From NCBI RefSeq assembly GCF_017348835.2, contig NZ_CP071375.1: a DNA stretch of 64,000 bases. One strand, 5' to 3'. Every line of letters begins with the position of its first letter. Position 1 is the first letter of the stretch. Shown in pieces: positions 1 through 59,778 of the stretch. Origin of the DNA: Escherichia coli (lineage in GTDB: Bacteria; Pseudomonadota; Gammaproteobacteria; Enterobacterales; Enterobacteriaceae). The notes under the pieces are model-generated. The model worked only from the letters and a program-made list of their open reading frames with translations, did not search any database and was not told where the DNA came from. A program made the translations under genes and the position numbers.

Positions 1-505
1 CTCTTCTTCGAAGAAAGATCGCGGTAAAGGCGCGCTGATTGGCGCAGCAGCAGGCGCAGCTCTGGGCGGCGGCGTGGGTTATTACATGGATGTGCAGGAA
101 GCGAAGCTGCGTGACAAAATGCGCGGCACTGGTGTTAGCGTAACCCGCAGCGGGGATAACATTATCCTCAATATGCCGAACAATGTGACCTTCGACAGCA
201 GCAGCGCGACCCTGAAACCGGCGGGCGCTAACACCCTGACCGGCGTGGCAATGGTACTGAAAGAGTATCCGAAAACGGCGGTTAACGTGATTGGTTATAC
301 CGACAGCACGGGGGGTCACGACCTGAACATGCGTCTCTCCCAGCAACGTGCGGATTCCGTTGCCAGCGCGTTGATCACCCAGGGCGTGGACGCCAGCCGC
401 ATCCGTACTCAGGGCCTTGGCCCGGCTAACCCAATCGCCAGCAACAGCACCGCAGAAGGTAAGGCGCAAAACCGCCGCGTAGAAATTACCTTAAGCCCGC
501 TGTAA
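1..505 (+). CDS. yiaD: OmpA-like C-terminal domain lipoprotein YiaD, 5'-truncated by window edge
   Basis: Reading frame is open from position 2 and continues into the ORF ending at 505; OmpA-C-like motifs (NIILNMPNNVTFDSSSATL, RRVEITL) recalled from YiaD. Confidence 0.85.
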   Translation, partial: SSSKKDRGKGALIGAAAGAALGGGVGYYMDVQEAKLRDKMRGTGVSVTRSGDNIILNMPNNVTFDSSSATLKPAGANTLTGVAMVLKEYPKTAVNVIGYTDSTGGHDLNMRLSQQRADSVASALITQGVDASRIRTQGLGPANPIASNSTAEGKAQNRRVEITLSPL

Positions 506-608
506 TCCCTTTCATGCCAGGTGATGCAGAAATCACCTGGCATTCTTCAGTTTTCCTTCATCATATTTCAGGCTAAGGTGATCGCCTTATCAGTGAATGG
601 AGAGAAGC

Positions 609-1583
609 ATGAAGCCGTCCGTTATCCTCTACAAAGCCTTACCTGATGATTTACTGCAACGCCTGCAAGAGCATTTCACCGTTCACCAGGTGGCAAACCT
701 CAGCCCACAAACCGTCGATCAAAATGCAGCAATTTTTGCAGAAGCTGAAGGTTTACTGGGTTCAAACGAGAATGTAGATGCCGCATTGCTGGAAAAAATG
801 CCGAAACTGCGTGCCACATCAACGATCTCCGTCGGCTATGACAATTTTGATGTCGATGCGCTTACCGCCTGAAAAATTCTGCTGATGCACACGCCAACCG
901 TATTAACAGAAACCGTCGCCGATACGCTGATGGCGCTGGTGTTGTCTACCGCTCGTCGGGTTGTGGAGGTAGCAGAACGGGTAAAAGCAGGCGAATGGAC
1001 CGCGAGCATAGGCCCGGACTGGTACGGCACTGACGTTCACCATAAAACACTGGGCATTGTCGGGATGGGACGGATCGGCATGGCGCTGGCACAACGTGCG
1101 CACTTTGGCTTCAACATGCCCATCCTCTATAACGCGCGCCGCCACCATAAAGAAGCAGAAGAACGCTTCAACGCCCGCTACTGCGATTTGGATACTCTGT
1201 TACAAGAGTCAGATTTCGTTTGCCTGATCCTGCCGTTAACTGATGAGACGCATCATCTGTTTGGCGCAGAACAATTCGCCAAAATGAAATCCTCCGCCAT
1301 TTTCATTAATGCCGGACGTGGCCCGGTGGTTGACGAAAATGCACTGATCGCAGCATTGCAGAAAGGGGAAATTCACGCCGCCGGGCTGGATGTCTTCGAA
1401 CAAGAGCCACTGTCCGTAGATTCGCCGTTGCTCTCAATGGCCAACGTCGTCGCAGTACCGCATATTGGATCTGCCACCCATGAGACGCGTTATGGCATGG
1501 CCGCCTGTGCCGTGGATAATTTGATTGATGCGTTACAAGGAAAGGTTGAGAAGAACTGTGTGAATCCGCACGTCGCGGACTAA
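609..1583 (+). pseudogene. ghrB: Glyoxylate/hydroxypyruvate reductase B, interrupted by an in-frame TGA at 870..872
   Basis: ORFs 597..872 and 885..1583 are in the same frame and together match the ~324-aa 2-hydroxyacid dehydrogenase; the stop sits where I recall an Arg (…[14 protein letters not shown]…). Confidence 0.7.
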
Positions 1584-1632
1584 GCCGCGACTGCGTGGAG
1601 TAAAGCCCGATAATCGCTCGGGCTTTTACTCT

Positions 1633-2343
1633 TTATTGGGTTGCAGTAACTGCTGTAGTCCAGGCCTGATTAAACGCCTGATGTTGTGCCGGTAATGGCG
1701 CAATCAGTTTGTTATATTCACTTGCCTGCTGTGAAGTCGGGAACTGGATGCCATTTGCTACAAAGCTCACCTGAGTACCTTGTTGGGCAATGTAGTCTCC
1801 AACCATCACCAGTTGTTGCGTGAAAGTTTGTGCCGCCGGAATCAACGGTTGCAATGCATCAGCTGGCGTCGTTACCACTTTGGTGAATGCCTGATCAAAG
1901 ACCGGTTTCAGGTCATCACTCTGTTTTAGCGCAGAGTGCGCAGCATCGGCCTGCAACTTCGCATTTTGCAGTTGTTGCGCCAGCACACCCAGCGAACCAT
2001 TCATTTCACGCAGCGGACCGCTTTGCGTAACGTAATCCTGCGGTACGCGAATTGCGTTAACGCTGTCTACAACCGGGCGCAGACCGGAATCCATCGCCTG
2101 ATTCACCTGCTGAGAATAACCATACAGAATCGCGTAATCAGAGACAAAAGGACCAAACTGTTTTTTCTGATCGGCAGTCAGGGTTGGTAGACGTTCACCG
2201 CTACGCATCACTGTATTCTGCAGGAAGTCGATAAACGCTTTACGCTGATCGCCTTCTTTATCAAAACACCCACTCAGGCTAACTACCATTAATAACGCCG
2301 CAAGAGGCGCAAACCAGCGAGAGCAGGACTTTCCTGTCGCCAT
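1633..2343 (-). CDS. yiaF: Putative lipoprotein YiaF (DUF3053)
   Basis: ORF 1633..2463 trimmed to the internal Met (MATGKS…) preceding a signal peptide with lipobox LSGC; 236 aa as recalled. Confidence 0.8.
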   Translation of the reverse strand: MATGKSCSRWFAPLAALLMVVSLSGCFDKEGDQRKAFIDFLQNTVMRSGERLPTLTADQKKQFGPFVSDYAILYGYSQQVNQAMDSGLRPVVDSVNAIRVPQDYVTQSGPLREMNGSLGVLAQQLQNAKLQADAAHSALKQSDDLKPVFDQAFTKVVTTPADALQPLIPAAQTFTQQLVMVGDYIAQQGTQVSFVANGIQFPTSQQASEYNKLIAPLPAQHQAFNQAWTTAVTATQ

Positions 2344-3949: not shown

Positions 3950-5100
3950 GGATAAGTAAGGGGAGATTGCACTATGCAAATGCAGCATCTGATGGTTGGC
4001 TATCCTAAGTACTACCAAACGGCCGATTATGCGTTGAGGCTTTCAGTGATGGCTGATATAGCAACAATGAGAATGAAGGCTCTGCACTTCTGGGATAAAC
4101 ACGGTATTTCTGCAGCTTCTGAAGCCTTTGGCGTGTCCTGCCGCACGCTTTACTGGTGGCGTCAGTTACTGAACAAGGAAGGACCTGAGGGGCTAATCCC
4201 GCACAGTAAGGCACCTCTGGTGCGACGAAAAAAACACTGGCATCCCGATGTGCTGAAAGAGATTCGACGCCTCAGGACAGAGCTGCCGAACCTCGGTAAA
4301 GAGCAGATTTTTGTTCGCCTGAAGCCCTGGTGCGAACAGCGCTATCTGGCCTGTCCGAGTGTTTCCACCATCGGCAGAATGATCGCTGCCGCACATGATA
4401 AAATGCGGATGATACCTGTGCGTCTGGGATCGCGGGGGAAGGCACTGCTTGTCAAAAAGCGGTCTGCCAAACCCCGCAGGCCAAAGCACTACCGCCCGGT
4501 AAAGACAGGTGAGCTCATTGGGATGGACGCCATTGAGCTCAGAATGGGCGAACTGCGTCGCTATGTCATCACCATGATCGACGAATGCAGCAATTACGCG
4601 CTGGCGCTGGCTGTGCCGTCACTCAACAGTGATATCGTCAATCACTTCTTCAGCCGCGCAGCCCGGTTGTTCCCGGTCGGTATCAGCCAGATAATCACAG
4701 ATAACGGAAAAGAGTTCCTGGGAAACTTCGACAAAACGCTGCAGGAAGCCGCTATCAAACACCTCTGGACCTATCCCTACACGCCAAAAATGAACGCTAT
4801 CTGTGAACGTTTTAACCGGACGTTAAGAGAGCAGTTTATTGAATTTAATGAGATTTTACTCTTTGAAGATCTGGCGCTATTTAACCAGAAGCTGGCGGAA
4901 TATCTGGTGCTGTATAACAGCAAAAGACCCCACAAGGCGCTCGCACTAATGACGCCCGTGGAATATATTTTAAAAGAGAATAAAAATTGCAATATGTGGT
5001 GGACCCATACAGTGTGTTGATTTCCAACGAGTAAGAGGCTAACCTTATGGTGTCTATGCATAGAGGGGCCTCACTTTGATTTATAGTCAGGTGGGGCTTT
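3950..5100 (+). mobile_element. Putative IS481-family-like insertion sequence; boundaries not resolved
   Basis: Single-ORF DDE transposase in the place K-12 carries IS150; I could not identify terminal inverted repeats by eye, so the ends are approximate. Confidence 0.3.
3974..5020 (+). CDS. DDE-type transposase/integrase (rve core; IS481-family-like)
   Basis: 348-aa ORF with N-terminal HTH-like segment and integrase core motifs (GMDAIE…ITDNGKEF…YPYTPKMNAICERFNRTLRE); true start may be a downstream Met. Confidence 0.7.
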   Translation: MQMQHLMVGYPKYYQTADYALRLSVMADIATMRMKALHFWDKHGISAASEAFGVSCRTLYWWRQLLNKEGPEGLIPHSKAPLVRRKKHWHPDVLKEIRRLRTELPNLGKEQIFVRLKPWCEQRYLACPSVSTIGRMIAAAHDKMRMIPVRLGSRGKALLVKKRSAKPRRPKHYRPVKTGELIGMDAIELRMGELRRYVITMIDECSNYALALAVPSLNSDIVNHFFSRAARLFPVGISQIITDNGKEFLGNFDKTLQEAAIKHLWTYPYTPKMNAICERFNRTLREQFIEFNEILLFEDLALFNQKLAEYLVLYNSKRPHKALALMTPVEYILKENKNCNMWWTHTVC

Positions 5101-5281
5101 TCTCTGTCTGCCTTTCGGTGAATACCTGAGACAAACAGTCTCAAGCACCTGTGGCTATTCTAGCTTAATAAGTTTGTTTCTTCTCCTTGATATTATCCTA
5201 AAAAAATCTCATAAAATTAATATATGAGATAATCTTTATTCAGCAGAAGATTATTAAAGGTTGCTGTATTATTTAGCGATA

Positions 5282-24734: not shown

Positions 24735-25550
24735 CTACGAATTGATATGTTCCTTGCTGTAACGCCGCTTCCACGCTGCTGGCGTTAAACCGGTGTGTTT
24801 GCGAAAAATCTGCCGGAAATAGCCAACGTCATTAAACCCGCACAACGCCGCCACTTCCGTGAGCGATCGCGCTTCGCTAATTAACAGCTTTTCGGCTTCG
24901 CGCACCCGCTGGCGATGGATTGCTTCTGTTAACGTCAGATGAAACACCCGCCGGTAGACGCGCCCAAGATAATCGGCATTGCAGTACAGCTCGCGGGCCA
25001 GAAGCGCCGTAGAAAGCGGGCGATGATATTGCGTGCGGATCAGTTTCTGCGCTTTCCAGGCAAGGGTGGTGCCTGCGCCATCGGCCTGTTCATCAAGACG
25101 CGCGTCACGGGTGAGCTGCTGCAAAATGAGCAGCACAATAAACTCCAGCGCCGGAGTGCGTTGATGCTTTTCCTGTTCGCTTAAGAACTGGCGAAACAGG
25201 GCCACCAGCGCCTGCGGATCGACAACCTTCGTTTGTTGCGGCACGCTAAGATGAGTAAGCCAGCGAGGGTCGTTGTCCGGCGCTTTAACCTCAAAATGCA
25301 GCCAGTAAAATTTGAGATCGGCGGGAAAATCCTCCACCCCAACATGTTGTCGGTTCGGCCAGAGTAATAAACTCTCTCCCGCATCGACCAGAAATATCCG
25401 TTCTTCTTCCTGAATCGTTAATCGACCTTTTTCGACAAAGATAATTTCCCATGACTCCAGCCGCCTTGCAGGATGCCTCCCTACGCCACGGGAAATAAAT
25501 AATCCACCATTTTGCACTTTAATCGGTAACGTCATGGATAATTCGAGCAT
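24735..25550 (-). CDS. AraC-family transcriptional regulator (cupin N-domain + HTH)
   Basis: 271-aa ORF with C-terminal AraC HTH (…EVAALCGFNDVGYFRQIFRKHTGLTPAAWKRR); divergent from the transporter gene. Confidence 0.8.
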   Translation of the reverse strand: MLELSMTLPIKVQNGGLFISRGVGRHPARRLESWEIIFVEKGRLTIQEEERIFLVDAGESLLLWPNRQHVGVEDFPADLKFYWLHFEVKAPDNDPRWLTHLSVPQQTKVVDPQALVALFRQFLSEQEKHQRTPALEFIVLLILQQLTRDARLDEQADGAGTTLAWKAQKLIRTQYHRPLSTALLARELYCNADYLGRVYRRVFHLTLTEAIHRQRVREAEKLLISEARSLTEVAALCGFNDVGYFRQIFRKHTGLTPAAWKRRYSKEHINS

Positions 25551-25775
25551 TGATATGTAATTTCCCGCTTACTCATTAATGATTAAACACATTACCTTTT
25601 GATTATTAATCAAAAACATTAATTTCACCTGATCCATTTCACACTTTTAAATTCAGGTCGGAATCGTCACCTTTTTTTACTCTTTTCTCGCCTTGTTGAT
25701 ATTCCCGTTCACGGCAGAATTAATCAGGTCATTTCAATAAAACTAAAAATTGCTCCCTATTCACGAGGAATATCT

Positions 25776-27176
25776 ATGACCTCTACACCGATTACTACCG
25801 CTGATATCGCTAAAGGTAAAATTGACGATGCGTTATCTGTACGGGAAAAAATAGGCTACGGCCTGGGTGACGCAGGCGGCACCGTAATAACTTGCCTGAT
25901 CATGAATTTTCTCACCTTTTTCTACACCGACGTTTTTGGATTAACTCCGGCGCTGGTTGGCACGCTGTTTATTGCACTGCGCGTGTTTGATGCCATCTCC
26001 GACCCGGTGATGGGCGTCATTGCCGACCGGACGCAAAGTCGCTGGGGGCGCTTTCGTCCGTGGCAGCTATGGATTGCCATTCCCATCGGCATTATCGGCA
26101 TCCTGACGTTCACCGTGCCAGATGCCAGCATGGGAGTAAAAATCGCCTGGGCGTTCGGTACTTACCTGCTCCTTTCAGTCGGTTATACCGCCATCAACGT
26201 ACCGTACTGTGCGCTGATCAACACCATGACCACCCGCCACAATGAAGTGATCTCCTGCCAGTCCTGGCGATTCGTTCTCTGTGGCGTAGCGGGATTTCTG
26301 GTTTCGGTAGGCTTACCGTGGATGGTAGATCTCTTCGGTCAGGGTAATGCCGCGCGCGGCTATCAATTGGGCGTCGGCGTGCTGTGCGCCATTGCCGTGG
26401 TGATGTTCCTGTGCTGTTTTTTCTGGGTTCGTGAACGGGTGCCACTCTCCACAATGGGGAAATTTACCCTGCGCGAACATCTTGCCGGGCTGCGGAACAA
26501 CGACCAACTGCTGCTGATGCTGGTCATGTCTTTCCTGCTGATTAACGTCTTTAACATTCGCGGCGGTGGGTATATGTACTTCATTACCTACGTCTTACAA
26601 GGCAGTACGGGCTACACGTCGCTGTTCTTCACCATGGTCACCTTCGCCTCCATTATCGGCTCGGTGATTGTCAGCCCGTTAACGCGGCGTTTCGATACCG
26701 TCAAAATTTACTACTACACCAACCTGCTCCTCGCTGCGCTGGCGGTGTTGATGTGGTTCCTGCCCTCCGGCCCGGCTTATCAAACGCTGTGGCTGGCGGT
26801 GATCCTCGGTAATGGCGTAATTCTTGGCTTCACATTGCCACTGCACTTCTCATTGATGGCCTTTGCCGATGACTACGGCGAGTGGAAAACCCGCGTACGT
26901 TCTTCCGGCATGAACTTCGCCTTCAATCTGTTTTTCATCAAGCTGGCCTGGGCCTCCAGCGCCGGGATCATCAGCCTGCTGTTTATTTTTGTCGCCTACC
27001 AGCCTGGCGTGGAAAACCAGACCGCCAGTTCGCTTGGCGGGATCGCGGCGATGGAAACATTACTGCCTGCGCTATTCCACCTGCTGCTGGCAGGGGCGAT
27101 CCGCTTTTGCAAACTCAATAATCCTATGATGTCACGCATAGCTACCGACCTGCGTCAGCGTCATGTACAGCCTTAA
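25776..27176 (+). CDS. GPH-family glycoside-pentoside-hexuronide:cation symporter (MelB/YicJ/XylP-like)
   Basis: 466-aa 12-TM-like ORF with GPH signature region (…[25 protein letters not shown]…). Confidence 0.8.
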
Positions 27177-27186
27177 GGAGCACAAG

Positions 27187-29157
27187 ATGAACATTTCGGA
27201 AGTCGATCTGCATAAACTGACGGTCAGCGATCCGTTCCTCGGTCAGTACCAACAACTGGTCCGCGACGTGGTGATTCCTTATCAGTGGGATGCCTTGAAC
27301 GATCGTATACCAGAAGCGGAACCCAGCCATGCGATTGAAAACTTTCGCATTGCCGCCGGACTTCAGGAGGGTGAATTTTACGGGATGGTGTTTCAGGACA
27401 GCGACGTCGCCAAATGGCTGGAAGCGGTAGCCTGGTCGCTGTGCCAGAAGCCAGACGCCGAACTGGAAAAAACCGCCGACGAGGTGATTGAACTGGTCGC
27501 CTCCGCCCAGTGCGAAGACGGCTATCTCAATACTTACTTTACGGTAAAAGCGCCCGAAGAACGCTGGAGCAATCTGGCGGAGTGTCATGAACTTTACTGC
27601 GCAGGTCATCTGATTGAAGCCGGAGTCGCCTTCTTCCAGGCCACGGGAAAACGGCGCTTGCTGGGGGTCGTTTGCCGCCTGGCCGATCATATCGACAGCG
27701 TATTTGGTCCAGATGAAAGTAAGTTACACGGTTATCCTGGTCACCCGGAAATTGAACTGGCACTAATGCGCCTGTATGAAGTGACTGAAGAGCCGCGCTA
27801 CCTGGCGCTGACGAACTATTTTGTCGAACAGCGTGGTGCGCAACCGCACTATTACGACCAGGAATATGAAAAGCGCGGGCAGACATCGCACTGGCACACC
27901 TACGGCCCGGCGTGGATGGTGAAAGACAAAGCCTACAGCCAGGCACATTTGCCCCTTGCGCAACAGCAAACCGCCATCGGTCACGCGGTACGTTTTGTCT
28001 ATCTGATGACCGGCGTCGCGCATCTCGCGCGTTTAAGTCACGATGACAGCAAGCGTCAGGACTGCCTGCGGCTGTGGAACAATATGGCCCAGCGTCAGTT
28101 ATATATTACCGGCGGCATTGGCTCGCAAAGCAGCGGCGAAGCGTTCACTAGCGATTACGATCTGCCGAATGACACGGTATACGCTGAAAGTTGCGCCTCC
28201 ATCGGCCTGATGATGTTTGCCCGACGAATGCTGGAAATGGAAGGCGACAGTCAATATGCCGATGTGATGGAGCGCGCACTGTACAACACCGTGCTCGGCG
28301 GCATGGCGCTGGATGGCAAACATTTCTTCTATGTGAATCCGCTGGAAGTACATCCAAAATCGCTGAAATTCAACCATATCTACGATCACGTTAAACCGAT
28401 CCGCCAGCGTTGGTTTGGCTGCGCTTGTTGTCCGCCAAATATCGCCCGCGTGCTGACCTCGATTGGTCATTATCTCTACACGCCGCGTGAAGATGCGTTG
28501 TATATCAACATATACGCAGGAAACAGCATGGAAGTGCCGGTAGAAAATGGCACGCTGCGCCTGCGGGTTAGCGGGAACTATCCGTGGCAGGAGCAGGTGA
28601 CGATTGCGGTTGAATCGCCCCAGCCGGTACGTCATACGCTGGCTTTACGTCTGCCGGACTGGTGCACACAGCCGCAGATCATATTGAATGGGGAAGAGGT
28701 CGAGCAGGATATTCGTAAAGGGTATTTGCACATTACCCGCGAATGGCAGGAGGGCGATACGCTGAATCTGACTTTGCCGATGCCGGTACGCCGCGTTTAC
28801 GGTAACCCGCTGGTGCGTCACGTCGCCGGAAAAGTGGCGATTCAGCGCGGCCCGCTGGTGTATTGCCTGGAACAGGCCGACAACGGCGAGTCACTGCATA
28901 ATCTGTGGCTGCCCACCGATGCGCCATTTACGACATTTGAAGGCAAGGGATTGTTTAGCCATAAGATCTTAATCCAGGCACCGGGTTACCGGTATGAACA
29001 GAGCAATCCAGAGCAGCAACCGCTGTGGCATTACGACAGCGCGCCAGCCAAACGCCAGACGCAAACTCTGACCTTTATCCCGTGGTTTAGCTGGGCCAAC
29101 CGGGGTGAAGGCGAAATGCGGATCTGGGTGAATGAGGAAAAGCATTGCCATCCGTAG
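27187..29157 (+). CDS. Glycoside hydrolase family 127 (DUF1680; beta-L-arabinofuranosidase-like)
   Basis: ORF trimmed to MNISEVDLHKL… (GGAG RBS 8 nt upstream); conserved GCACCPPN cysteine motif typical of GH127. Confidence 0.7.
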   Translation: MNISEVDLHKLTVSDPFLGQYQQLVRDVVIPYQWDALNDRIPEAEPSHAIENFRIAAGLQEGEFYGMVFQDSDVAKWLEAVAWSLCQKPDAELEKTADEVIELVASAQCEDGYLNTYFTVKAPEERWSNLAECHELYCAGHLIEAGVAFFQATGKRRLLGVVCRLADHIDSVFGPDESKLHGYPGHPEIELALMRLYEVTEEPRYLALTNYFVEQRGAQPHYYDQEYEKRGQTSHWHTYGPAWMVKDKAYSQAHLPLAQQQTAIGHAVRFVYLMTGVAHLARLSHDDSKRQDCLRLWNNMAQRQLYITGGIGSQSSGEAFTSDYDLPNDTVYAESCASIGLMMFARRMLEMEGDSQYADVMERALYNTVLGGMALDGKHFFYVNPLEVHPKSLKFNHIYDHVKPIRQRWFGCACCPPNIARVLTSIGHYLYTPREDALYINIYAGNSMEVPVENGTLRLRVSGNYPWQEQVTIAVESPQPVRHTLALRLPDWCTQPQIILNGEEVEQDIRKGYLHITREWQEGDTLNLTLPMPVRRVYGNPLVRHVAGKVAIQRGPLVYCLEQADNGESLHNLWLPTDAPFTTFEGKGLFSHKILIQAPGYRYEQSNPEQQPLWHYDSAPAKRQTQTLTFIPWFSWANRGEGEMRIWVNEEKHCHP

Positions 29158-33131: not shown

Positions 33132-34670
33132 TCAGAACAGCCCCAACGGTTTATCTGAGTAGCTCACTAGCAGGCACTTGGTTTGCTGGTAATGCTCCAG
33201 CATCATCTTGTGGGTTTCGCGACCGATGCCTGATTGTTTGTAGCCGCCAAACGCCGCATGTGCCGGGTAAGCGTGATAACAGTTGGTCCACACGCGCCCA
33301 GCCTGTATGCCGCGCCCCATCTTATAGGCCAGATTACCGTTGCGGCTCCAGACGCCCGCGCCCAGGCCATATTGCGTATCGTTCGCCAGCTCCAGCGCTT
33401 CTTCCATCGTTTTGAAGGTGGTCACCGCCAGCACCGGGCCAAAAATCTCCTCCTGGAACACGCGCATATTGTTCTGACCAAACAGAATCGTCGGTTCGAG
33501 GTAGTAGCCGTCTTTCAGTTCACCTTCCAGCAGCTTGCGCCGCCCGCCAGTGAGCACGTCTGCGCCCTCTTTTTTACCGATATCAATGTAGTTGAGGATG
33601 GTTTCCAGTTGCCCGTGAGAAACCTGCGCCCCCATTTGCGTCACGCTGTCGAGTGGGTTACCGCTGCGAATGCTTTCGACACGGCGGATGGCGCGTTCCA
33701 TAAAGCGTTCGTAGATTGACTCCTGCACTAAGGCACGACTCGGACAGGTGCAAACTTCGCCCTGGTTAAAGGCAAACAGTGCAAAGCCTTCCAGCGCTTT
33801 ATCGAAAAAGGCATCTTCTTCATCCATCACATCAGCAAAGAAGATATTTGGCGACTTACCGCCCAGCTCCAGCGTCACCGGAATAATGTTTTGCGTTGCG
33901 TATTGCATAATTTGTTGGCCCACTTCCGTTGAGCCGGTAAACGCCACTTTGGCGATGCGTTTCGAGGTCGCCAGATATTCGCCAATTTCCCCACCAGCGC
34001 CATTGACCACGTTCACCACGCCCGGCGGCAGTAAATCACCGACGATTTCCATTAGCAGCAGTACAGAAAGCGGGGTAAGACGTGCGGGTTTCAGCACCAC
34101 ACAGTTGCCCGCCGCCAGCGCGGGAGCCATTTTCCAGCTCGCCATCAGCAGCGGGAAGTTCCACGGGATAATCTGCCCCACCACGCCTAACGGTTCATGG
34201 AAATGATAGGCCACGGTTTCGCTATCAACTTCACTGATCCCACCTTCCTGCGCCCGAATACACGAGGCGAAATAGCGGAAATGGTCAATCGCCAGCGGTA
34301 CATCCGCAGCACTGGTTTCGCGAATGGGTTTGCCGTTATCCCAGGTTTCAGCTGTCGCTAACAGCTCGAGGTTTTGTTCCATTCGATCGGCAATCTTAAA
34401 CAGAATCGCCGCGCGATCCTGCACCGAGGTGTGCGCCCATTTATCTTTCACTTTGTGCGCAGCATCCAGCGCCAGATCGATGTCTCGTTTGCCCGAAGAC
34501 GCCACTTCGCACAGCAGCTGCCCGGTCACCGGCGTCAGGTTCTGGTAATACTCACCATCGGCAGGGGCTACCCATTCGCCGCCAATAAAGTTGTCGTAGC
34601 GGGCTTTTAACTTGATGGGGAAACCATACTCACCGGGCTTAATCTGTGCTGAAGGGGGATTGTTGGTCAT
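33132..34670 (-). CDS. aldB: Aldehyde dehydrogenase B
   Basis: ORF trimmed to [17 protein letters not shown]… (512 aa); catalytic region present. Confidence 0.95.
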
Positions 34671-34777: not shown

Positions 34778-36073
34778 TTACAACGGATAATGCGCGACGT
34801 ACACTGCTTGCTGGTCATTAATTTTCTTCTCTTGCGCAAATCCTTCTTTAACAATCGTCCGTAAATCAGTTCGCGCTGTATTATCAGAGACGCCCAGACT
34901 CGCGCTGGTTTCAGAAACTGTGTACTCTTTCCCCGGATTGGCGAGCATCACATTCAGGAGCGTTACCTGGCGAGGATTCAGGCGTTTAAGCACACCAGAG
35001 CTAAACAGCACACTATCGAGTTTTGCGCTTCGTTGTGTAATTTCATCAATATGCTGCTGCAAGTTATGCAGAGCGCGTTTAATGACATCGGCCTGATATT
35101 CAAGGAAATAAGTCAGATCCATACCGTCTGATTCAGTGTACTGGTAGCTGGCAGCATATTTGACTGGCGCAGCATGAAGCAAACGGCTGATGGAAATATA
35201 TTTAAAGACATCGTAGCCCGATTTCAGCATATACCAGTAAAACAGCGCCCGACTGGTGCGCCCGTTGCCATCGCGAAATGGATGTTCATGGGCCAGCATA
35301 AAATGCAGAATGCAGGCACGGATTAACGGGTGAATATACCCTTCATGGCTGTTTAACCACTGGCAAACTTTTTCCAGTCGTTCCGGTAACAATGCCGCAG
35401 CGGGCGGTTGGTGCACAATATTGCCGTCATAATCGGCGATCACGACATCATCTGTTTCACGAAATTCACCTGGACGATATTTCGCGTCATTTATTCCCCC
35501 CATGCCAATGGCATGTAACTGGCGAATAAGCGCAGGTGTCAGCGGTTCTGCGAGTAAGTGCGGAATTTCCGCCATCAGCCGGGCATTTCCCGCAATCATA
35601 TGCTCGTCTTCAGTGCGTGGCGACCGTCCTGTTTCCAGCATTTTTCTCGCCACCAGCGTTGTAGTATTCGCACCTTCCAGCTGGGAGCTGGTGATCGGCT
35701 CTTCCAGGCGTAACTGGCTTAACTCGGCTCCGGCCCCGCGTAACCGTTCAGTCTGATCTTTCAGCGCCAGCGCGGTAGCACGTTTGTCGACAAGCTCGCA
35801 CGCTTCTGCAATCACCGGGGTAATGTTGAATCCGGCCTGTTCACCCGCTTCATTGCAATAATTAATTCGTTGGATCGCCGCGTTGCGCGCCAGACGGGTA
35901 AGCGTCCACGCCACATCGACGTTTTCTCCTTTTTTGATGCGGTACTGCAACTCATCAAAAGGCAGATAACGTCCTTTTTCATCGGTAACCCGGTTAAAGC
36001 GCAGGTGGGCCAGGAGTTCCTCACCCGATAAGTGTGATAAAGGAATAAGTCCGGGAGGTGATTTGATAGCCAT
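34778..36073 (-). CDS. Fic-family protein (putative AMPylator) with C-terminal winged-HTH-like domain
   Basis: 431-aa ORF carrying canonical Fic motif [12 protein letters not shown] and a candidate N-terminal inhibitory motif SSQLEG ([ST]xxxE[GN]). Confidence 0.8.
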
Positions 36074-37542: not shown

Positions 37543-39387
37543 TTATTTTTCCGGAAATAATAATGCGTCGCGCAATAAATGATCATTTCCACGACGACGC
37601 GTAAAGCCAATGCGGTCAAAATATTCCAGGATTTGAATCGCCAGTTTTCGCCCAACCCCTAAGCGATCGCGGAAATCCGCCGCGCAGGTTGAACCACATT
37701 CCTGATCGAGATCGCGGATCATATTGGCAAATTCGACAATCCGATCGTTACGGTAATAACGATCTTTGACGATCGCGGTAATTATTCCCTGTTGGGCCGC
37801 CTGACGTAGCGTCAGGCGCATTGCCTGCTCGTCGGTGCCCGTCTCTTTTGCCAGATCACGCACCCACCACGGCTCGTCACCAAACAGCGGCTCTGCTTTC
37901 TGCCAGATGGCCTGCTGCTCTTCGCTGAAGCCCGCTTTGTGATCCGGCAGATGCAGCCAACCGTGATGACTGAGGATGTCGCCGCTTTCGCGCATCTTTT
38001 CAATCAGCAACAGTACCAGCGCTTCATCTTCCATTGGCAACGCCATACGTCGCAGACGTTCGCGCCCAGGACCAGGTTCATCACGATGTTGCTCATGATA
38101 AGTCGCTAATGTGTCGAGAATTTTCCGCTGCCAGCGGGCGGCAACTGGCGCATTCAACAAGCTATAACCAGCCTGAATATAGCCCGGCTGTTGCAGTAGT
38201 TCGCGCATCCCTTCGCCGTTGAGCTGGCGTGCCCAGGCGAAATCCGCAAGGTTAACCGCGCCGCGTTCCAGATGAACAGATAACGCATCGGCATCGCTCT
38301 GCGCCCGTGCAAGAGACGCCAGCCATTGCAGATATTCCGGCTTACGCTTACCGCGACGCGGTGGGTTAAGCATCACCACACGCGCCCCCGCCAGCGTGTT
38401 GCGGGCCGAGATATCGCGCAACACTAAGCGATCGTTATCCGCCAGCCACAGCGGCGTGTCGAACACCAGCTCGGCAAGGTTATCTTCCAGCAGCGAAACG
38501 CGTCCCGTAACGTGGCTGGCGGCGTGGTGAATATGCAGCGGCTGCCACTGGGTCAGCGGCGTATGGGTTTGAAGCTCGACAATCACCCGCGTGAACGGCT
38601 CTGGCGGCACATCGGCAAGCAGCCAGTCGCCACGGTTAATCTGCTCTTTTTCCGCATCCCCCGCGATGTTAAGCGCGATACGCTGGCCGGCATGAGCGGT
38701 TTCTGTTGGCTGGTTTTGTGCATGCAGTGCACGTACACGCATCGGTTTATTTACACCAGTCAGCCATAGTGAATCGCCTACCTTCACTTCCCCGCTTAAC
38801 GCCGTACCGGTGACGACCAGCCCGGCACCTTTTACGGTAAATGCGCGGTCGATCGCGAGGCGGAAACTATGTTGGCTGGCGTGTTCACGTTCTGGTAACT
38901 GAAGCAGATGCTCGCGCAGGGCATCAATTCCCCGACCTTCGGTTGCTGCGGTGATAAACAGTTTTGCCTCAGCAAAACCGTATTCCCGCAGCACCTCCTT
39001 TACCTGGCGTTCCACCTCATTAACACGCGCTTCGTCCACGCGATCGGCTTTGGTCAGCGCCACTGTCAGCATCGGGTTACCGGTCAGCTGCAAAATCGCC
39101 AGATGCTCACGGGTCTGTGCCATCACGCCGTCATCGCACGCCACCACCAACAGCGCGTGATCGATACCACCAACGCCCGCCAGCATGTTGGAAAGAAACT
39201 TTTCATGACCGGGAACGTCGATAAAACCAGGCACGCGACCATCCGGCTGCGGCCAGTAGGCATAGCCGAGATCGATAGTCATGCCGCGCTTTTTTTCTTC
39301 CGGCAGACGATCGGCATTTACGCCAGTAATCGCCTGCAATAAGGTTGTTTTGCCGTGGTCAACGTGTCCGGCAGTCGCAATAATCAT
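37543..39387 (-). CDS. selB: Selenocysteine-specific elongation factor
   Basis: 614-aa ORF with GTPase G1 motif [10 protein letters not shown] and C-terminal winged-helix region. Confidence 0.95.
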
Positions 39388-40775
39388 TTCAACAACATCT
39401 CCAAAAACCGTTGCTCATCTTCAAGGCAGCGTAAATCCAGCCACAATCGTCCGTCATAAATACGACCAATCACCGGCACTGGCAATTCACGCCAGCGGGC
39501 GGCTAATGACTCAAGGTGGCTACCGCGTCCATCATGGGGTGTAAACGTTAATGCCGCGCTCGGCAGGCGATCAACCGGCAGCGAACCACTGCCAATCTGC
39601 GAAAGACATGGCATAACCTGTACCGCAAACTCCGCGCCGTAATGTGCGGCAAGGGGAGCCTGTAAACGTTGTGCCTGGATTTGAATGACCTCTGCGCTGC
39701 GGGTAAGCAGGCGCAGGGTCGGTAATTTTTCACTCAGAGCTTCAGGGTGTAAATAAAGACGCAACGTGGCTTCCAACGCCGCGAGGGTCATTTTATCCGC
39801 GCGTAATGCACGCTTCAGCGGGTGGCTTTGCAGGCGGGCGATCATCTCTTTTTTACCAACGATAATCCCTGCCTGCGGCCCGCCTAACAACTTGTCGCCG
39901 GAGAAGCTCACCAGACTGACGCCCGCCGCAATCAACTCCTGCGGCATTGGCTCTTTCGGCAAACCGTACTGGCTAAGATCGACCAGCGAGCCACTGCCTA
40001 AATCAGTCACTACGGGAACATCCAGCTCTTTGCCGAGCGCCACCAGTTCAGCTTCGTCTATCGCTTTGGTGAACCCCTGAATGCTGTAGTTACTGGTATG
40101 TACTTTCATCAACAGTGCGGTATTTTCATTCACCGCCTGACGATAATCATTCGCGTGCGTGCGGTTGGTGGTCCCTACTTCGTGTAGGGTGCAGCCTGCC
40201 TGACGCATAACATCGGGAATACGAAACGCGCCGCCAATCTCCACCAGTTCGCCGCGAGAAACCACCACCTCTTTCCCGCTGGCAGTGGCCGCCAACATCA
40301 ATAACACCGCCGCCGCATTGTTATTGACGATACAGGCATCTTCCGCCCCCGTAATACGGCACAGCAACTGCGCCAGCGCCCGATCGCGATGTCCGCGTCC
40401 GGCGTCGTCCAGATCGTACTCGAGGGTCACTGGCGAACGCATAGCCTGCGCAACGGCTTCCACCGCGGCTTCCGCCTGTAAAGCTCGCCCAAGGTTGGTA
40501 TGCAGCACGGTTCCCGTCAGGTTGATCACCGGACGCAGCGCGCTCTGCGCCTCTTTCGTCAACCGGGCATCGACTTCTTGCGCCCAGTTTTCACACCACG
40601 CAGGCAGCGTCTGGCAGTCACGAATCACTTCTCGCGCTTCGTCAAGCATCTGACGCAGCAATTCCACCACGCGAGTGTGACCATAAGTATCACGCAAAGA
40701 AAGGAAGGAGCTATCGCGCAATAAGCGATCAATAGCCGGAAGTTGACTATAGAGGGAACGCGTTTCGGTTGTCAT
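39384..40775 (-). CDS. selA: L-seryl-tRNA(Sec) selenium transferase
   Basis: 463-aa [22 protein letters not shown]…; overlaps selB start. Confidence 0.95.
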
Positions 40776-41709: not shown

Positions 41710-44700
41710 ATGAGCGGAAAACCGGCGGCGCGTCAGGGCGACATGACGCAGTATGGCGGTAGCATTGTCCAGGGTTCAGCCGGGGTGCGCATCGGTGCCC
41801 CCACCGGCGTGGCCTGTTCGGTGTGCCCCGGCGGGGTGACGTCCGGCCATCCGGTCAATCCGCTGCTCGGTGCAAAGGTCCTTCCCGGTGAAACCGACAT
41901 CGCCCTGCCCGCCCCGCTGCCGTTCATTCTCTCCCGCACCTACAGCAGTTACCGGACAAAAACGCCCGCGCCGGTGGGGAGCCTCGGCCCCGGCTGGAAA
42001 ATGCCTGCGGATATCCGCTTACAGCTGCGCGATAACACACTGATACTCAGTGATAACGGCGGCAGAAGCCTGTATTTTGAGCACCTGTTTCCCGGTGAGG
42101 ACGGTTACAGCCGCAGCGAATCACTGTGGCTGGTGCGCGGCGGCGTGGCGAAACTGGATGAAGGTCACCGGCTGGCCGCACTCTGGCAGGCGCTGCCGGA
42201 AGAACTCCGCTTAAGTCCGCATCGTTATCTGGCGACAAACAGTCCGCAGGGGCCGTGGTGGGTACTCGGCTGGTGTGAGCGGGTGCCGGAAGCGGATGAG
42301 GTGCTGCCTGCGCCGCTGCCGCCGTACCGGGTACTGACCGGGCTGGTGGACCGCTTCGGGCGCACACAGACGTTCCACCGCGAAGCCGCCGGTGAATTCA
42401 GCGGCGAAATCACCTGCGTGACGGATGGTGCCGGGCGTCACTTCCGGCTGGTACTGACCACGCAGGCGCAGCGGGCAGAAGAAGCCCGGCAGCAGGCCAT
42501 TTCCGGCGGGACGGAACCGTCCGCTTTTCCTGATACCCTTCCGGGTTACACCGAATATGGCCGGGACAACGGCATCCGTCTGTCTGCCGTGTGGCTGACG
42601 CACGACCCGGAATACCCGGACAACCTGCCAGCCGCGCCGCTGGTGCGCTATGGCTGGACGCCGCGCGGCGAACTGGCGGCAGTGTATGACCGCAGCAATA
42701 CACAGGTGCGCAGCTTTACTTACGATGATAAATACCGGGGCCGGATGGTGGCGCACCGTCACACGGGCCGACCGGAAATCCGTTACCGTTACGACCGCGA
42801 CGGGCGGGTGACAGAACAGCTAAACCCGGCAGGCTTAAGCTACACGTATCAGTATGAGAAAGACCGCATCACCATCACCGACAGCCTGGACCGCCGTGAA
42901 GTGCTGCACACGCAGGGCGAAGGCGGGCTGAAGCGGGTGGTGAAAAAGGAACACGCGGACGGCAGCGTCACGCAGAGTCAGTTTGACGCCGTGGGCAGGC
43001 TTAAGGCACAGACAGATACGGCAGGCCGGACGACTGAGTACAGCCCGGATGTGGTGACGGGACTCATCACGCGCATCACCACACCGGATGGCAGGGCATC
43101 GGCATTTTACTATAACCACCACAGCCAGTTAACGTCAGCCACCGGGCCTGACGGGCTGGAATTGCGCCGGGAATATGATGAATCCGGCCGTCTGATTCAG
43201 GAAACTGCACACAACGGCGATATCACCCGCTACCGTTATGATAATCCACACAGTGACTTACCCTGCGCAACGGAAGATGCCACCGGCAGCCGGAAAACCA
43301 TGACGTGGAGCCGTTACGGCCAGTTGCTGAGCTTCACCGACTGTTCCGGTTATGTAACCCGTTATGACCATGACCGCTTCGGGCAGATGACGGCGGTGCA
43401 CCGCGAGGAAGGGCTGAGTCAGTACCGCGCATACGACAGCCGTGGACAGTGAATTGCCGTGAAAGACACGCAGGGCCATGAAACGCGGTATGAATACAAC
43501 ATCGCCGGTGACCTGACCGCCGTCATTGCCCCGGACGGCAGCAGAAACAGGACACAGTACGATGCGTGGGGAAAGGCCGTCCGTACCACGCAGGGCGGGC
43601 TGACGCGCAGTATGGAATACGATGCTGCCGGACGGGTCATCCGCCTGACCAGTGAAAACGGCAGCCACACCACCTTCCGTTACGATGTACTCGACCGGCT
43701 GATACAGGAAACCGGCTTTGACGGCCGCACACAGCGTTATCACCACGACCTGACCGGCAAACTTATCCGCAGCGAGGATGAGGGGCTGGTCACCCACTGG
43801 CACTATGACGAAGCAGACCGCCTCACGCACCGCACCGTGAATGGCGAAACCGCAGAGCGGTGGCAGTATGATGAACGCGGCTGGCTGACAGACATCAGCC
43901 ATATCAGCGAAGGGCACCGGGTGACGGTGCATTACGGGTATGATGAGAAAGGCCGGCTGACCGGTGAGCGTCAGACGGTGCATCACCCGCAGACGGAAGC
44001 ACTGCTCTGGCAGCATGAGACCAGACACGCTTACAACGCGCAGGGGCTGGCGAACCGCTGTATACCGGACAGCCTGCCCGCCGTGGAATGGCTGACCTAC
44101 GGCAGCGGCTGGCTGGCAGGCATGAAACTCGGCGACACACCGCTGGTGGAGTACACCCGCGACCGCCTGTACCGGGAAACGCTGCGCAGATTCGGCCGTT
44201 ATGAACTCACCACCGCTTACACCCCTGCCGGGCAGTTACAGAGCCAGCACCTGAACAGCCTGCAGTATGACCGCGATTACACCTGGAACGACAACGGCGA
44301 ACTCATCCGCATCAGCAGCCCGCGCCATACCCGGAGTTACAGCTACAGCGACTCCGGCAGGCTGACCGGCGTTCACACCACGGCAGCGAACCTTGATATC
44401 CGCATCCCGTATGCCACGGACCCGGCAGGTAACCGCCTGCCCGACCCGGAGCTGCACCCGGACAGCACCCTCAGCATGTGGCCGGATAACCGTATCGCCC
44501 GTGACGCGCACTATCTTTACCGGTATGACCGTCACGGCAGACTGACAGAGAAAACCGACCTCATCCCGGAAGGGGTTATCCGCACGGATGATGAGCGCAC
44601 CCACCGGTACCATTACGACAGTCAGCACCGGCTGGTGTACTACACGCGGACACAATATGCAGAGCCGCTGGTCGAAAGCCGCTATCTTTACGACCCGCTG

Positions 44701-45888
44701 GGCCGCAGGGTGGCAAAACGGGTATGGCGACGTGAACGGGACCTGACGGGCTGGATGTCGCTGTCACGGAAACCGGAAGTGACCTGGTACGGCTGGGACG
44801 GCGACCGCCTGACCACAATACAGAACGACAGAACCCGCATCCAGACGATTTATCAGCCGGGGAGCTTCACGCCACTCATCAGGGTTGAAACCGCCACCGG
44901 TGAGCTGGCGAAAACGCAGCGCCGCAGCCTGGCGGATGCGCTTCAGCAGTCCGGCGGCGAAGACGGTGGCAGTGTGGTGTTCCCGCCGGTGCTGGTGCAG
45001 ATGCTCGACCGGCTGGAAAGTGAAATCCTGGCTGACCGGGTGAGTGAGGAAAGCCGCCGCTGGCTGGCATCGTGCGGCCTGACTGTGGAGCAGATGCAAA
45101 ACCAGATGGACCCGGTGTACACGCCGGCGCGAAAAATCCACCTGTACCACTGCGACCATCGCGGCCTGCCGCTGGCGCTTATCAGTGCGGAAGGGGCTAC
45201 AGAATGGTGCGCAGAATACGATGAATGGGGCAACCTGCTGAATGAAGAGAACCCGCATCAGCTGCAGCAGCTTATCCGCCTGCCGGGGCAGCAGTATGAT
45301 GAGGAGTCCGGCCTGTATTACAACCGCCACCGCTATTATGACCCGCTGCAGGGGAGGTATATCACTCAGGATCCGATTGGGCTGAAGGGGGGATGGAATT
45401 TTTATCAGTATCCGTTGAATCCGATAACTGATATTGACCCGTTGGGATTAGCGACCTGTTTATACAGCATAACTTTAAGTATGCTTTCATGCGTTTCAGA
45501 TACGCAAAATGATGATAACTCTTATGATGTGCTTACTATTCCTGTCGCCTCTGGTAATAATGGTAATAATATGCAATGTAAAAATAATCCTGGTTGTACA
45601 CACTTACAAAATAGAGGTCCAATACCTCAAGGGGTATGGAGCTGGAATGTTAATGGTCCTGGAGCAACCAATAGAAAACCTAATGGTATACGTTTAGTAC
45701 CGTCAGCAAATACAGAAACATATAATCGTGATGGATTTTTAACACATAGTTGTTTAAACGCTTTCGGTCCGTCTTTAGGACCTCGATTCTGTTCCGAGGG
45801 TTGTATAACTGGTTCATCTAATGACATGCAAAAATTAAATGAGTTAATATTTTCAGAGCCAGATAGCACATTAACAGTTACGGACTAA
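41710..45888 (+). pseudogene. rhsA: Rhs polymorphic toxin RhsA with YD repeats, divergent C-terminal tip, and an in-frame TGA at 43450..43452
   Basis: ORFs 41710..43452 and 43459..45888 are in the same frame; N-terminus MSGKPAARQGDMTQYGG…, YD-repeat core and PxxxxDPxGL boundary ([11 protein letters not shown]) read directly; the stop replaces a Leu as I recall K-12 RhsA. Confidence 0.75.
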
Positions 45889-57900: not shown

Positions 57901-59778
57901 GTCGGTGACGCCCTGAATGCGCTTGATGATAACGCCCTGCTGTGGGATGAGACTGCCAATGGCGGTGCAGGAGCCTACAATGCCAGCCATGACGGTAAAG
58001 CCAGCATCATCACTAATGTCGCTAATGGCAGTATTAGTGAGGACAGTACCGATGCAGTGAACGGTTCTCAGTTGAATGCGACGAATATGATGATTGAGCA
58101 GAACAGCCAAATCATCAATCAGCTTGCTGGTAATACCGACGCAACCTATATCGAAGAAAATGGCGCTGGTATCAACTACGTTCGTACTAACGACAACGGT
58201 TTAGCCTTTAACGATGCAAGCGCCTCTGGTGTCGGCGCTACAGCTGTAGGTTATAACGCTGTCGCGTCTGGTGCCAGCAGCGTAGCCATTGGTCAGAACA
58301 GCAGCAGCACCGTTGATACCGGTATTGCGCTGGGTAGCAGCTCCGTTTCCAGCCGTGTGATTGCCAAAGGTTCTCGTGATACCAGCGTGTCAGAAGAAGG
58401 TGTTGTGATTGGTTATGACACCACGGATGGCGAACTGCTCGGTGCATTGTCGATTGGTGATGATGGCAAGTACCGCCAAATCATCAACGTAGCCGATGGT
58501 TCCGAAGCCCATGACGCCGTTACGGTTCGTCAGTTGCAGAACGCTATTGGAGCGGTCGCCACTACGCCAACCAAGTACTATCACGCCAACTCAACGGCAG
58601 AAGACTCACTGGCCGTTGGTGAAGACTCGCTGGCAATGGGGGCGAAAACTGTCGTTAATGGTAATGCAGGTATTGGTATCGGTTTGAACACTCTGGTTCT
58701 GGCTGATGCGATCAACGGTATTGCTATCGGCAGTAACGCACGCGCAAACCATGCAAACAGTATTGCAATGGGTAACGGTTCTCAGACCACCCGTGGTGCA
58801 CAGACTGGCTACACCGCCTACAACATGGACGCACCGCAGAACTCTGTAGGTGAGTTTTCTGTTGGTAGTGAAGACGGTCAACGTCAGATCACCAACGTCG
58901 CAGCTGGTTCAGCGGATACCGATGCGGTTAACGTGGGTCAGTTGAAAGTCACTGATGAGCGCGTAACGCAAAATACCCAGAGCATTACTAACCTGAACAA
59001 TCAGGTCACTAATCTGGATACTCGCGTTACTAATATCGAAAACGGTATTGGCGACATCGTAACCACCGGTAGCACCAAGTACTTCAAGACTAACACCGAT
59101 GGCGTAGATGCCAATGCCCAGGGTAAAGATAGCGTTGCTATTGGTTCTGGTTCCATTGCTGCCGCTGACAACAGCGTCGCTCTGGGTACAGGCTCCGTGG
59201 CCAACGAAGAAAACACGATCTCTGTGGGTTCTTCTACCAACCAACGCCGTATCACCAACGTAGCTGCCGGTGTTAATGCCACCGATGCGGTTAACGTGTC
59301 GCAGCTGAAATCTTCTGAAGCAGGCGGCGTGCGCTACGACACCAAAGCTGATGGTTCTATCGACTATAGCAATATCACCCTCGGTGGTGGCAACGGCAGT
59401 ACGACTCGTATCAGCAACGTCTCCGCTGGCGTCAACAACAACGACGCGGTGAACTACGCGCAGTTGAAGCAAAGCGTGCAGGAAACGAAGCAATACACCG
59501 ATCAGCGGATGGTTGAGATGGATAACAAACTGTCTAAAACTGAAAGCAAGTTGAGCGGTGGTATCGCTTCTGCAATGGCAATGACCGGTCTGCCGCAGGC
59601 TTACACTCCAGGTGCCAGCATGGCCTCTATTGGTGGCGGTACTTACAACGGTGAATCGGCTGTTGCTTTAGGTGTATCGATGGTGAGCGCCAATGGTCGT
59701 TGGGTCTACAAATTACAAGGTAGTACCAATAGCCAGGGTGAATACTCCGCCGCACTCGGTGCCGGTATTCAGTGGTAA
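54931..59778 (+). CDS. upaG: Trimeric autotransporter adhesin, UpaG/EhaG/SadA family
   Basis: 1615-aa ORF with extended signal peptide [21 protein letters not shown]…, repetitive head/stalk modules and a C-terminal YadA-like anchor ending …AALGAGIQW. Confidence 0.85.
56379..57150 (+). repeat. In-frame tandem repeats (~255 bp / 85 aa, ~3 copies) inside the adhesin stalk
   Basis: Near-identical DNA blocks, e.g. ACCAACGTTAAAGATGGCGACCTGACGGCTGGCAGCACCGATGCCGTTAA… at 56641 and again at 56896. Confidence 0.8.

Follow-up and report, generated by a model that had tools for sequence, protein, structure and literature searches.

Enzymes of the 2HADH family have their active site in the cleft between two domains, and the substrate is bound by residues of both (PMC6303947). 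The carboxylate of the substrate is held by a clamp of two consecutive main-chain amides in the β4–α4 loop (Val72-Gly73 in PDB 5v7n), and other conserved substrate contacts are made by Arg230, Glu259 and His277 in 5v7n numbering (PMC6303947). In Escherichia coli, the GHRB subfamily of D-2-hydroxyacid dehydrogenases includes ghrB (also named tkrA or yiaE), which encodes glyoxylate/hydroxypyruvate/2-ketogluconate reductase B. YiaE (GhrB) can take the place of YcdW (GhrA) (PMC6303947), and engineered strains deleted for both ghrA and ghrB are routinely built and grown (PMC11880463). Here, we describe an allele of ghrB in which codon 88 is TGA, located in a stretch of E. coli DNA of 64,000 nucleotides (termed the window, to which all positions refer). 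The allele very probably represents a recent nonsense loss of function, and with it an ordinary strain-specific ghrB pseudogene (R88*) in a small E. coli clone.

The window begins inside yiaD and continues with ghrB, yiaF, yiaG, cspA and hokA. The ghrB gene spans 324 codons on the + strand (609..1583), broken at codon 88, and is recognized from its translation, its nucleotide identity and its Pfam domains. It is 99.9% identical in nucleotide sequence to the annotated ghrB of strains PapM-32-1 and PE164, and its neighbours are identical to those of PE164; near-identical sequence in the conserved yiaD–ghrB–yiaF context identifies it as a ghrB orthologue. The start is ATG 609, as annotated in PE164 and PapM-32-1, and its Shine-Dalgarno sequence (SD; GGAGAG, 599..604, + strand) is unchanged and pairs with the anti-SD at −6.4 kcal/mol, within the top 5% among window ATGs, while the corresponding pairing for ATG 597 is just −2.8 kcal/mol. 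A preliminary description of this DNA had taken the upstream reading frame to begin at 597; annotation in the relatives and SD strength move that start to ATG 609, but the position of the stop stands. Terminator-like hairpins are located on the + strand 3′ of yiaD (514..543) and 3′ of ghrB (1602..1626). Given the hairpin after yiaD, ghrB is likely to be transcribed alone, and since the gene has its own terminator and yiaF is convergent, the stop leaves no gene downstream to suffer a polar effect. The spacer before ghrB (545..597, − strand) gives weak matches to Rfam models of archaeal C/D-box snoRNAs (sR60, scoring 22 bits where the gathering score is 50, and sR14), which overlap or adjoin the yiaD terminator; both are sub-threshold and are taken as chance. 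Apart from these two models, an Rfam scan of 500..1700 returned no family even at E ≤ 10.

Translation of 609..1583 gives a frame that is continuous except for one internal stop, the TGA at 870..872 (+ strand, codon 88), before the normal terminal stop. The open reading frames on either side of it, listed as 597..872 (91 aa) and 885..1583 (232 aa), share a common frame; the preliminary description had called them collinear and in-frame, and the interruption that it placed at about codon 88 falls at exactly that codon when counted from ATG 609. Compared base by base with PapM-32-1, the sole difference over 1,061 nt is C→T at 870, which converts CGA to TGA. PE164, together with PapM-32-1 the nearest complete genome, has CGA at codon 88, and BLR(DE3), which differs from the window at five positions including 870 (the other four being one missense, two synonymous and one non-coding), likewise keeps CGA; the arginine named for this codon in the preliminary description was the right residue. 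The premature stop thus occupies a position with a sense codon in close relatives, with T at 870 the derived state and C (CGA, Arg) the ancestral one. A megablast search with 560..1620 matched 5,422 of 5,426 complete E. coli genomes (5,421 at ≥80% coverage), the best matches reaching 99.9% and none of the 5,426 reaching 100% identity. The C→T change at 870 is therefore a single derived base, not a chance pattern, in a near-universal E. coli gene.

An exact match to a TGA-centred 61-mer occurs in 0 of 5,406 complete RefSeq E. coli genomes, all of which have at least one mismatch, although a TGA allele carrying a second SNP within 30 nt would fall in the same identity band and be missed. A 44-mer across the ghrB TGA has no exact match in JGI metagenome contigs. 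An exact look-up placed the 87-residue N-terminal product on 14 contigs and, among the eight loci listed for this product, six (L003–L008) carry ACCGCCTGAAAAATT. Each of the six is 100% identical to the window over 2.2–3.9 kb, and they stem from at least four apparently separate submissions: NCBI assembly GCA_032490375.1 and Logan assemblies SRR31611469, SRR33453116, SRR33453117, SRR27418558 and ERR14374684. In two look-up matches (L009 and L010), the gene is truncated by the end of the contig and has no TGA, and both were excluded as TGA alleles. The TGA is thus reproduced in independent sequence data (one NCBI assembly and five sequencing runs). Resequencing had been proposed as the way in which a sense codon might come to light; in effect these six contigs are that experiment, and all show TGA with 100% identical flanks. 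The contig from GCA_032490375.1 (L004) ends, at its positions 5135–5209, in an IS3-family inverted-repeat-like sequence (TGAACCGCCCCGGG) that is absent from the window, and the insertion maps to window 2742/2743, in the yiaF–yiaG spacer. Its presence in one TGA-bearing member indicates that the allele is heritable and that the clone has already diversified. A literature search found no publication citing the accessions of the TGA-bearing datasets. The ghrB TGA is a real, heritable and rare allele, and T at 870 provides a clean diagnostic marker for this small clone, whose relatives include the pig isolates PE164 and F2_81.

The consequences for the protein can be read from its domains. In the conceptually repaired protein, Pfam recovers both expected domains, PF00389 at residues 5–319 with the NAD-binding PF02826 embedded at 108–287. 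The N-terminal open reading frame (609..872, + strand; 87 aa and the stop) covers PF00389 profile positions 1–81 of 134, the initial ~60% of the substrate-binding domain, including S74-V75-G76-Y77-D78. The downstream open reading frame (885..1583, + strand; 232 aa) begins at native Met93 without an SD, and covers PF00389 positions 88–134 of 134, the C-terminal part of the substrate-binding domain, and all of PF02826, hence the whole NAD-binding domain, along with the R237, E266 and H285 motifs. Together, the two fragments cover every domain element save residues 88–92. The E. coli equivalents of the clamp residues would be V75-G76, upstream of the stop, and those of the other substrate contacts R237, E266 and H285, downstream of it; neither ghrB fragment alone is predicted to have a complete active site. 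The break falls inside the substrate-binding domain, apparently at a helix–strand junction, rather than between domains. Two distant homologues of solved structure, 9m0t (a Bacillus-type 2-ketogluconate reductase) and 2dbq (a glyoxylate reductase from Pyrococcus), also have the arginine of position 88. The preliminary description had credited the downstream fragment with the NAD-binding and catalytic domains, which is roughly right but loosely put: PF02826 is kept with the Arg/Glu/His catalytic residues, but just the C-terminal third is kept of the domain that Pfam terms 'catalytic' (the substrate-binding one). It had also stated that the downstream fragment is missing the N-terminal substrate-binding part, and this agrees with our assignment, since PF00389 positions 1–81, with the Val-Gly main-chain carboxylate clamp, reside in the N-fragment. 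On the domain content of the fragments, GhrB activity would be lost or reduced to a trace.

The age of the allele is constrained by comparison with PE164, an E. coli isolate from a pig in Nanjing, which matches the initial 25 kb of the window in one piece at ~100%. Over 64 kb, the two differ by three SNPs, by a single 6-bp repeat unit and by an IS. This near-identity to an E. coli strain also led us to reject an origin of the window in a Shigella genome rich in pseudogenes. The SNPs are located at 870 (ghrB R88*), at 34632 (aldB Gly13, synonymous) and at 43451 (rhs L581*, TTA→TGA); the repeat unit is CACCAT at 56352 (His-His coding), of which the window has one fewer, and the IS is an IS3-family insertion in PE164 only, not in the window. 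So few differences over 64 kb imply that the ghrB mutation is very recent, and this recency accounts for the absence of change in the 236 codons after the stop, in the SD and in the terminator. The lack of further decay in the rest of ghrB likewise marks the event as young. The window has an uninterrupted gene for a YadA-type trimeric autotransporter adhesin of 1,615 aa (54931..59778), with an ESPR signal and with head, stalk and anchor domains; its PE164 copy is split by the IS3-family insertion. Between hokA and glyS, a 348-aa open reading frame (3974..5020) with HTH and integrase-core (rve) domains resembles a single-ORF transposase or IS element; the PE164 annotation is just 'integrase core domain-containing protein', and in other strains the site is either empty or occupied by IS150. 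Common to the window and PE164 are an AraC-family regulator, an MFS transporter and a GH127 glycoside hydrolase beside an IclR-family gene remnant (24735..29157), and a 431-aa Fic-domain protein between yiaY and aldB (34778..36073). On the K-12 map the place of the former is presumably taken by yiaJ–yiaS, and we take both regions to be accessory relative to K-12.

The third of these SNPs is a nonsense change as well. The preliminary description had presented the ghrB stop as a second single-codon nonsense event in otherwise conserved housekeeping sequence; a single-codon nonsense event it is, but its counterpart relative to the nearest genome lies in an Rhs toxin gene (43450..43452), not in a housekeeping gene. 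The Rhs core gene (41710..45888) encodes a 1,392-aa Rhs toxin with a Tlde1-domain tip, and an Imm57 immunity open reading frame lies at 45977..46414. At rhs codon 581, the window has TGA where PE164 has TTA (Leu), owing to T→G at 43451, and the toxin is split into open reading frames of 580 and 809 aa. None of 9,304 rhs places in 3,469 complete genomes has the 61-mer with the rhs TGA, and the rhs TGA has 0 matches in JGI metagenomes. Public data contain no record of the 580-aa or the 809-aa fragment, as expected given that rhs repeats break short-read contigs.

TGA nonsense changes thus account for two of the three SNPs between the window and PE164. For the expected share of such changes, all single-base substitutions were enumerated in 47 of the CDSs that are annotated as intact within the part of PE164 matching the window (49.6 kb); 3.7% of these are nonsense and 0.7% create TGA. 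The unconditioned probability that at least two of three SNPs are nonsense is ~0.004, while with one nonsense SNP taken as given, the probability of another among the remaining two is ~0.07. Since the window was picked for a nonsense codon, the conditional value applies, and it is not significant. The occurrence of two TGAs among three SNPs is therefore suggestive, but not significant, as a hint that more than neutral decay by chance may be involved. The ghrB change is a C→T transition and the rhs change a T→G transversion, and so no single mutational process is indicated.

These observations fit a simple sequence of events. In one small clone close to the pig isolates PE164 and F2_81, a recent spontaneous C→T transition would have converted the rare codon CGA (Arg88), which is one step from a stop codon, into TGA. 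Ribosomes starting from ATG 609 would stop at UGA88 via RF2 and release an 87-residue peptide that would have neither the NAD(P)H-binding domain nor the Arg/Glu/His catalytic residues, so that GhrB activity would be lost or persist as a trace. The mutation would be tolerated because ghrB is non-essential and GhrA (YcdW), to judge from published work, overlaps with it in glyoxylate and hydroxypyruvate reduction. Residual expression, if any, would come from readthrough by near-cognate tRNA-Trp, with a yield of full-length R88W of no more than a few percent. The nonsense mutation was probably neutral or nearly so. No new mechanism is needed, and nothing points to recoding. The downstream 232 codons, which are identical to those of functional alleles, would fit a young pseudogene and expression by readthrough or reinitiation equally well.

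Other public E. coli assemblies carry lesions of their own in ghrB. In loci L011–L020, independent indels split the gene, mostly −1 changes in A6 or A5 runs, with lesion sites at nt 184–189, 228–232, 251, 255 and 264–268 of the gene. The types comprise −1 at the A6 run of nt 184–189 (window 792–797), −1 at the A5 run of nt 264–268 (window 872–876), single-base deletions at nt 251 and 255, and one 5-bp deletion; L012 and L016 have A4 in place of the A5 run. All leave the 232-aa open reading frame from Met93. This downstream product is found in 281 contigs by cluster look-up and in 375 index blocks by contig look-up, but these counts were rejected as a sign of wide spread of the TGA allele, the inspected loci carrying −1 frameshifts or small deletions instead. 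Several of the indels sit among fragmented neighbouring genes and are probably long-read homopolymer errors, while a few with intact neighbours may be real lesions.

Such independent ghrB-disrupting indels are one reason to ask whether the loss was selected, with inactivation of ghrB adaptive in the niche of this lineage, for example through sparing of glyoxylate or NADPH or changed use of ketogluconate. The unconditioned probability for nonsense in two of three SNPs points the same way, as does the fact that the TGA clone lasted long enough for an IS insertion in one member. We nevertheless consider selected loss unlikely. With no occurrence in 5,406 complete genomes or in JGI metagenome contigs, the allele is very rare, many of the disruptions seen elsewhere are −1 errors at homopolymers with neighbouring genes broken too, the conditional probability for the second nonsense SNP is ~0.07, and no phenotype is known.

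A different view holds that the allele is leaky and not a pseudogene, a selected hypomorph in which tRNA-Trp reads UGA88 and full-length GhrB(R88W) is useful. UGA followed by A is reportedly the classic leaky context that favours readthrough, as Engelberg-Kulka is said to have found in 1981, and UGA88 has this context, since the A of the stop codon begins an A5 run (872..876, + strand) that elsewhere is a −1 frameshift site. The downstream open reading frame is also undamaged, but this is expected anyway at three SNPs per 64 kb. In E. coli K-12 reporters, where Trp-tRNA-Trp competes with RF2, UGA readthrough is ~2% at 37°C and ~4% at 25°C (PMC10570021). On these figures, full-length R88W would be expected to make up a few percent of the product at most, and this is an upper bound. 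Programmed readthrough, which would be recognized by a conserved stop and a stimulatory element, finds no counterpart here: the stop is conserved in no relative (0 of 5,406 complete genomes), the 64 nt from the stop fold at −9.6 kcal/mol, no better than shuffled controls (z = −0.77), and Rfam has no match to the region beyond the chance ones mentioned above. K-12 RF2 is a weak variant, which colours the reporter figures, and a non-K-12 strain is expected to read through less. Trp may not be tolerated at a position where Arg is conserved in distant homologues. Taken together, this makes a useful leaky allele an improbable reading, somewhat more so than selected loss. Rescue by frameshifting around GCC-UGA-AAA-A was likewise rejected: the +1 frame stops after KFC*, as in natural frameshift alleles, and the −1 frame, read by eye, does not rejoin the ghrB frame.

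The two TGAs invite a broader version of this idea, in which the private changes in ghrB (R88*) and rhs (L581*) are not coincidence and the clone tolerates or exploits raised UGA readthrough, owing, for instance, to a weak allele of RF2 or to a suppressor derived from tRNA-Trp and encoded outside the window, with ghrB still made as low-level full-length R88W or as a reinitiated split enzyme. We regard this as quite improbable. Were the excess of UGA nonsense changes to prove genome-wide, it would offer a modest starting point for work on how natural E. coli tolerates UGA.

Reinitiation could in principle yield a split enzyme, if translation restarted at AUG 885, 12 nt past the stop, and the 87-aa and 232-aa products reassembled or the C-fragment acted alone. 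Short-range termination-reinitiation occurs in E. coli, as in the lacI and T4 rIIB restarts and by 70S scanning; the stop and the next in-frame ATG are 12 nt apart, and the fragments jointly hold all domain elements but residues 88–92. Against this, ATG 885 has no SD (its duplex is +0.4 kcal/mol, and 84% of window ATGs pair at least as strongly), the cut lies inside the substrate-binding domain, and there is no sign of selection for such an arrangement. Both domains are required to bind the substrate (PMC6303947), and the C-fragment is without the V75-G76 clamp. Independent initiation at ATG 885 was rejected, there being neither an SD nor a promoter-like site upstream; only an inefficient, termination-coupled restart is conceivable there, and its product would be without the carboxylate clamp. 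A functional split enzyme is accordingly very improbable.

A sequencing or assembly error in the source genome is effectively excluded: assembly errors most often take the form of a single-base difference and the site adjoins the A5 run, but the change is a substitution and not a change in homopolymer length, and the T recurs in six other public contigs, which come from what appear to be four or more separate submissions. The reading of UGA88 as a selenocysteine (Sec) codon can be dismissed, for although UGA is the Sec codon and selA and selB are intact in the window (37543..40775), PE164 has selAB in the same chromosomal region yet carries CGA, the sequence 3′ of UGA88 is the same as in CGA strains, that 3′ sequence contains no SECIS-like hairpin and has no Rfam match, and the residue in E. 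coli relatives, 9m0t and 2dbq is Arg, not Cys or Sec.

The pseudogene reading has practical consequences, though its significance is slight beyond annotation. A single ghrB pseudogene (nonsense, R88*) is the appropriate annotation for the locus, in place of two genes labelled 'hypothetical' or 'partial'. The clone is predicted to be without GhrB and to rely on GhrA for glyoxylate and hydroxypyruvate reduction. The role of GhrB as tkrA is the reduction of 2-ketogluconate, and the contribution of GhrB to this reaction would be lost too.

Set beside known systems, the locus shares with E. coli ghrB its location, the yiaD–ghrB–yiaF synteny, the Pfam architecture, the start, the SD and the terminator, and differs from the usual gene in that codon 88 is TGA, not CGA, so that the frame is not intact. 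Its likeness to selenoprotein genes such as fdhF is limited to an in-frame UGA in the gene of a redox enzyme and to the presence of selA and selB in the genome; unlike those genes, ghrB has no SECIS, homologues have Arg at the position and the UGA is not conserved. With the other disrupted ghrB alleles it has in common the 232-aa open reading frame from Met93, but those are frameshifts and this is a nonsense substitution. The closest resemblance is to the strain-specific nonsense pseudogenes of non-essential E. coli genes. One circumstance is unusual for that class, the second TGA (in rhs) among three SNPs; in all else, the allele conforms to it, with a single derived base, intact relatives, no secondary decay and a dispensable gene whose function overlaps with that of another enzyme, GhrA.
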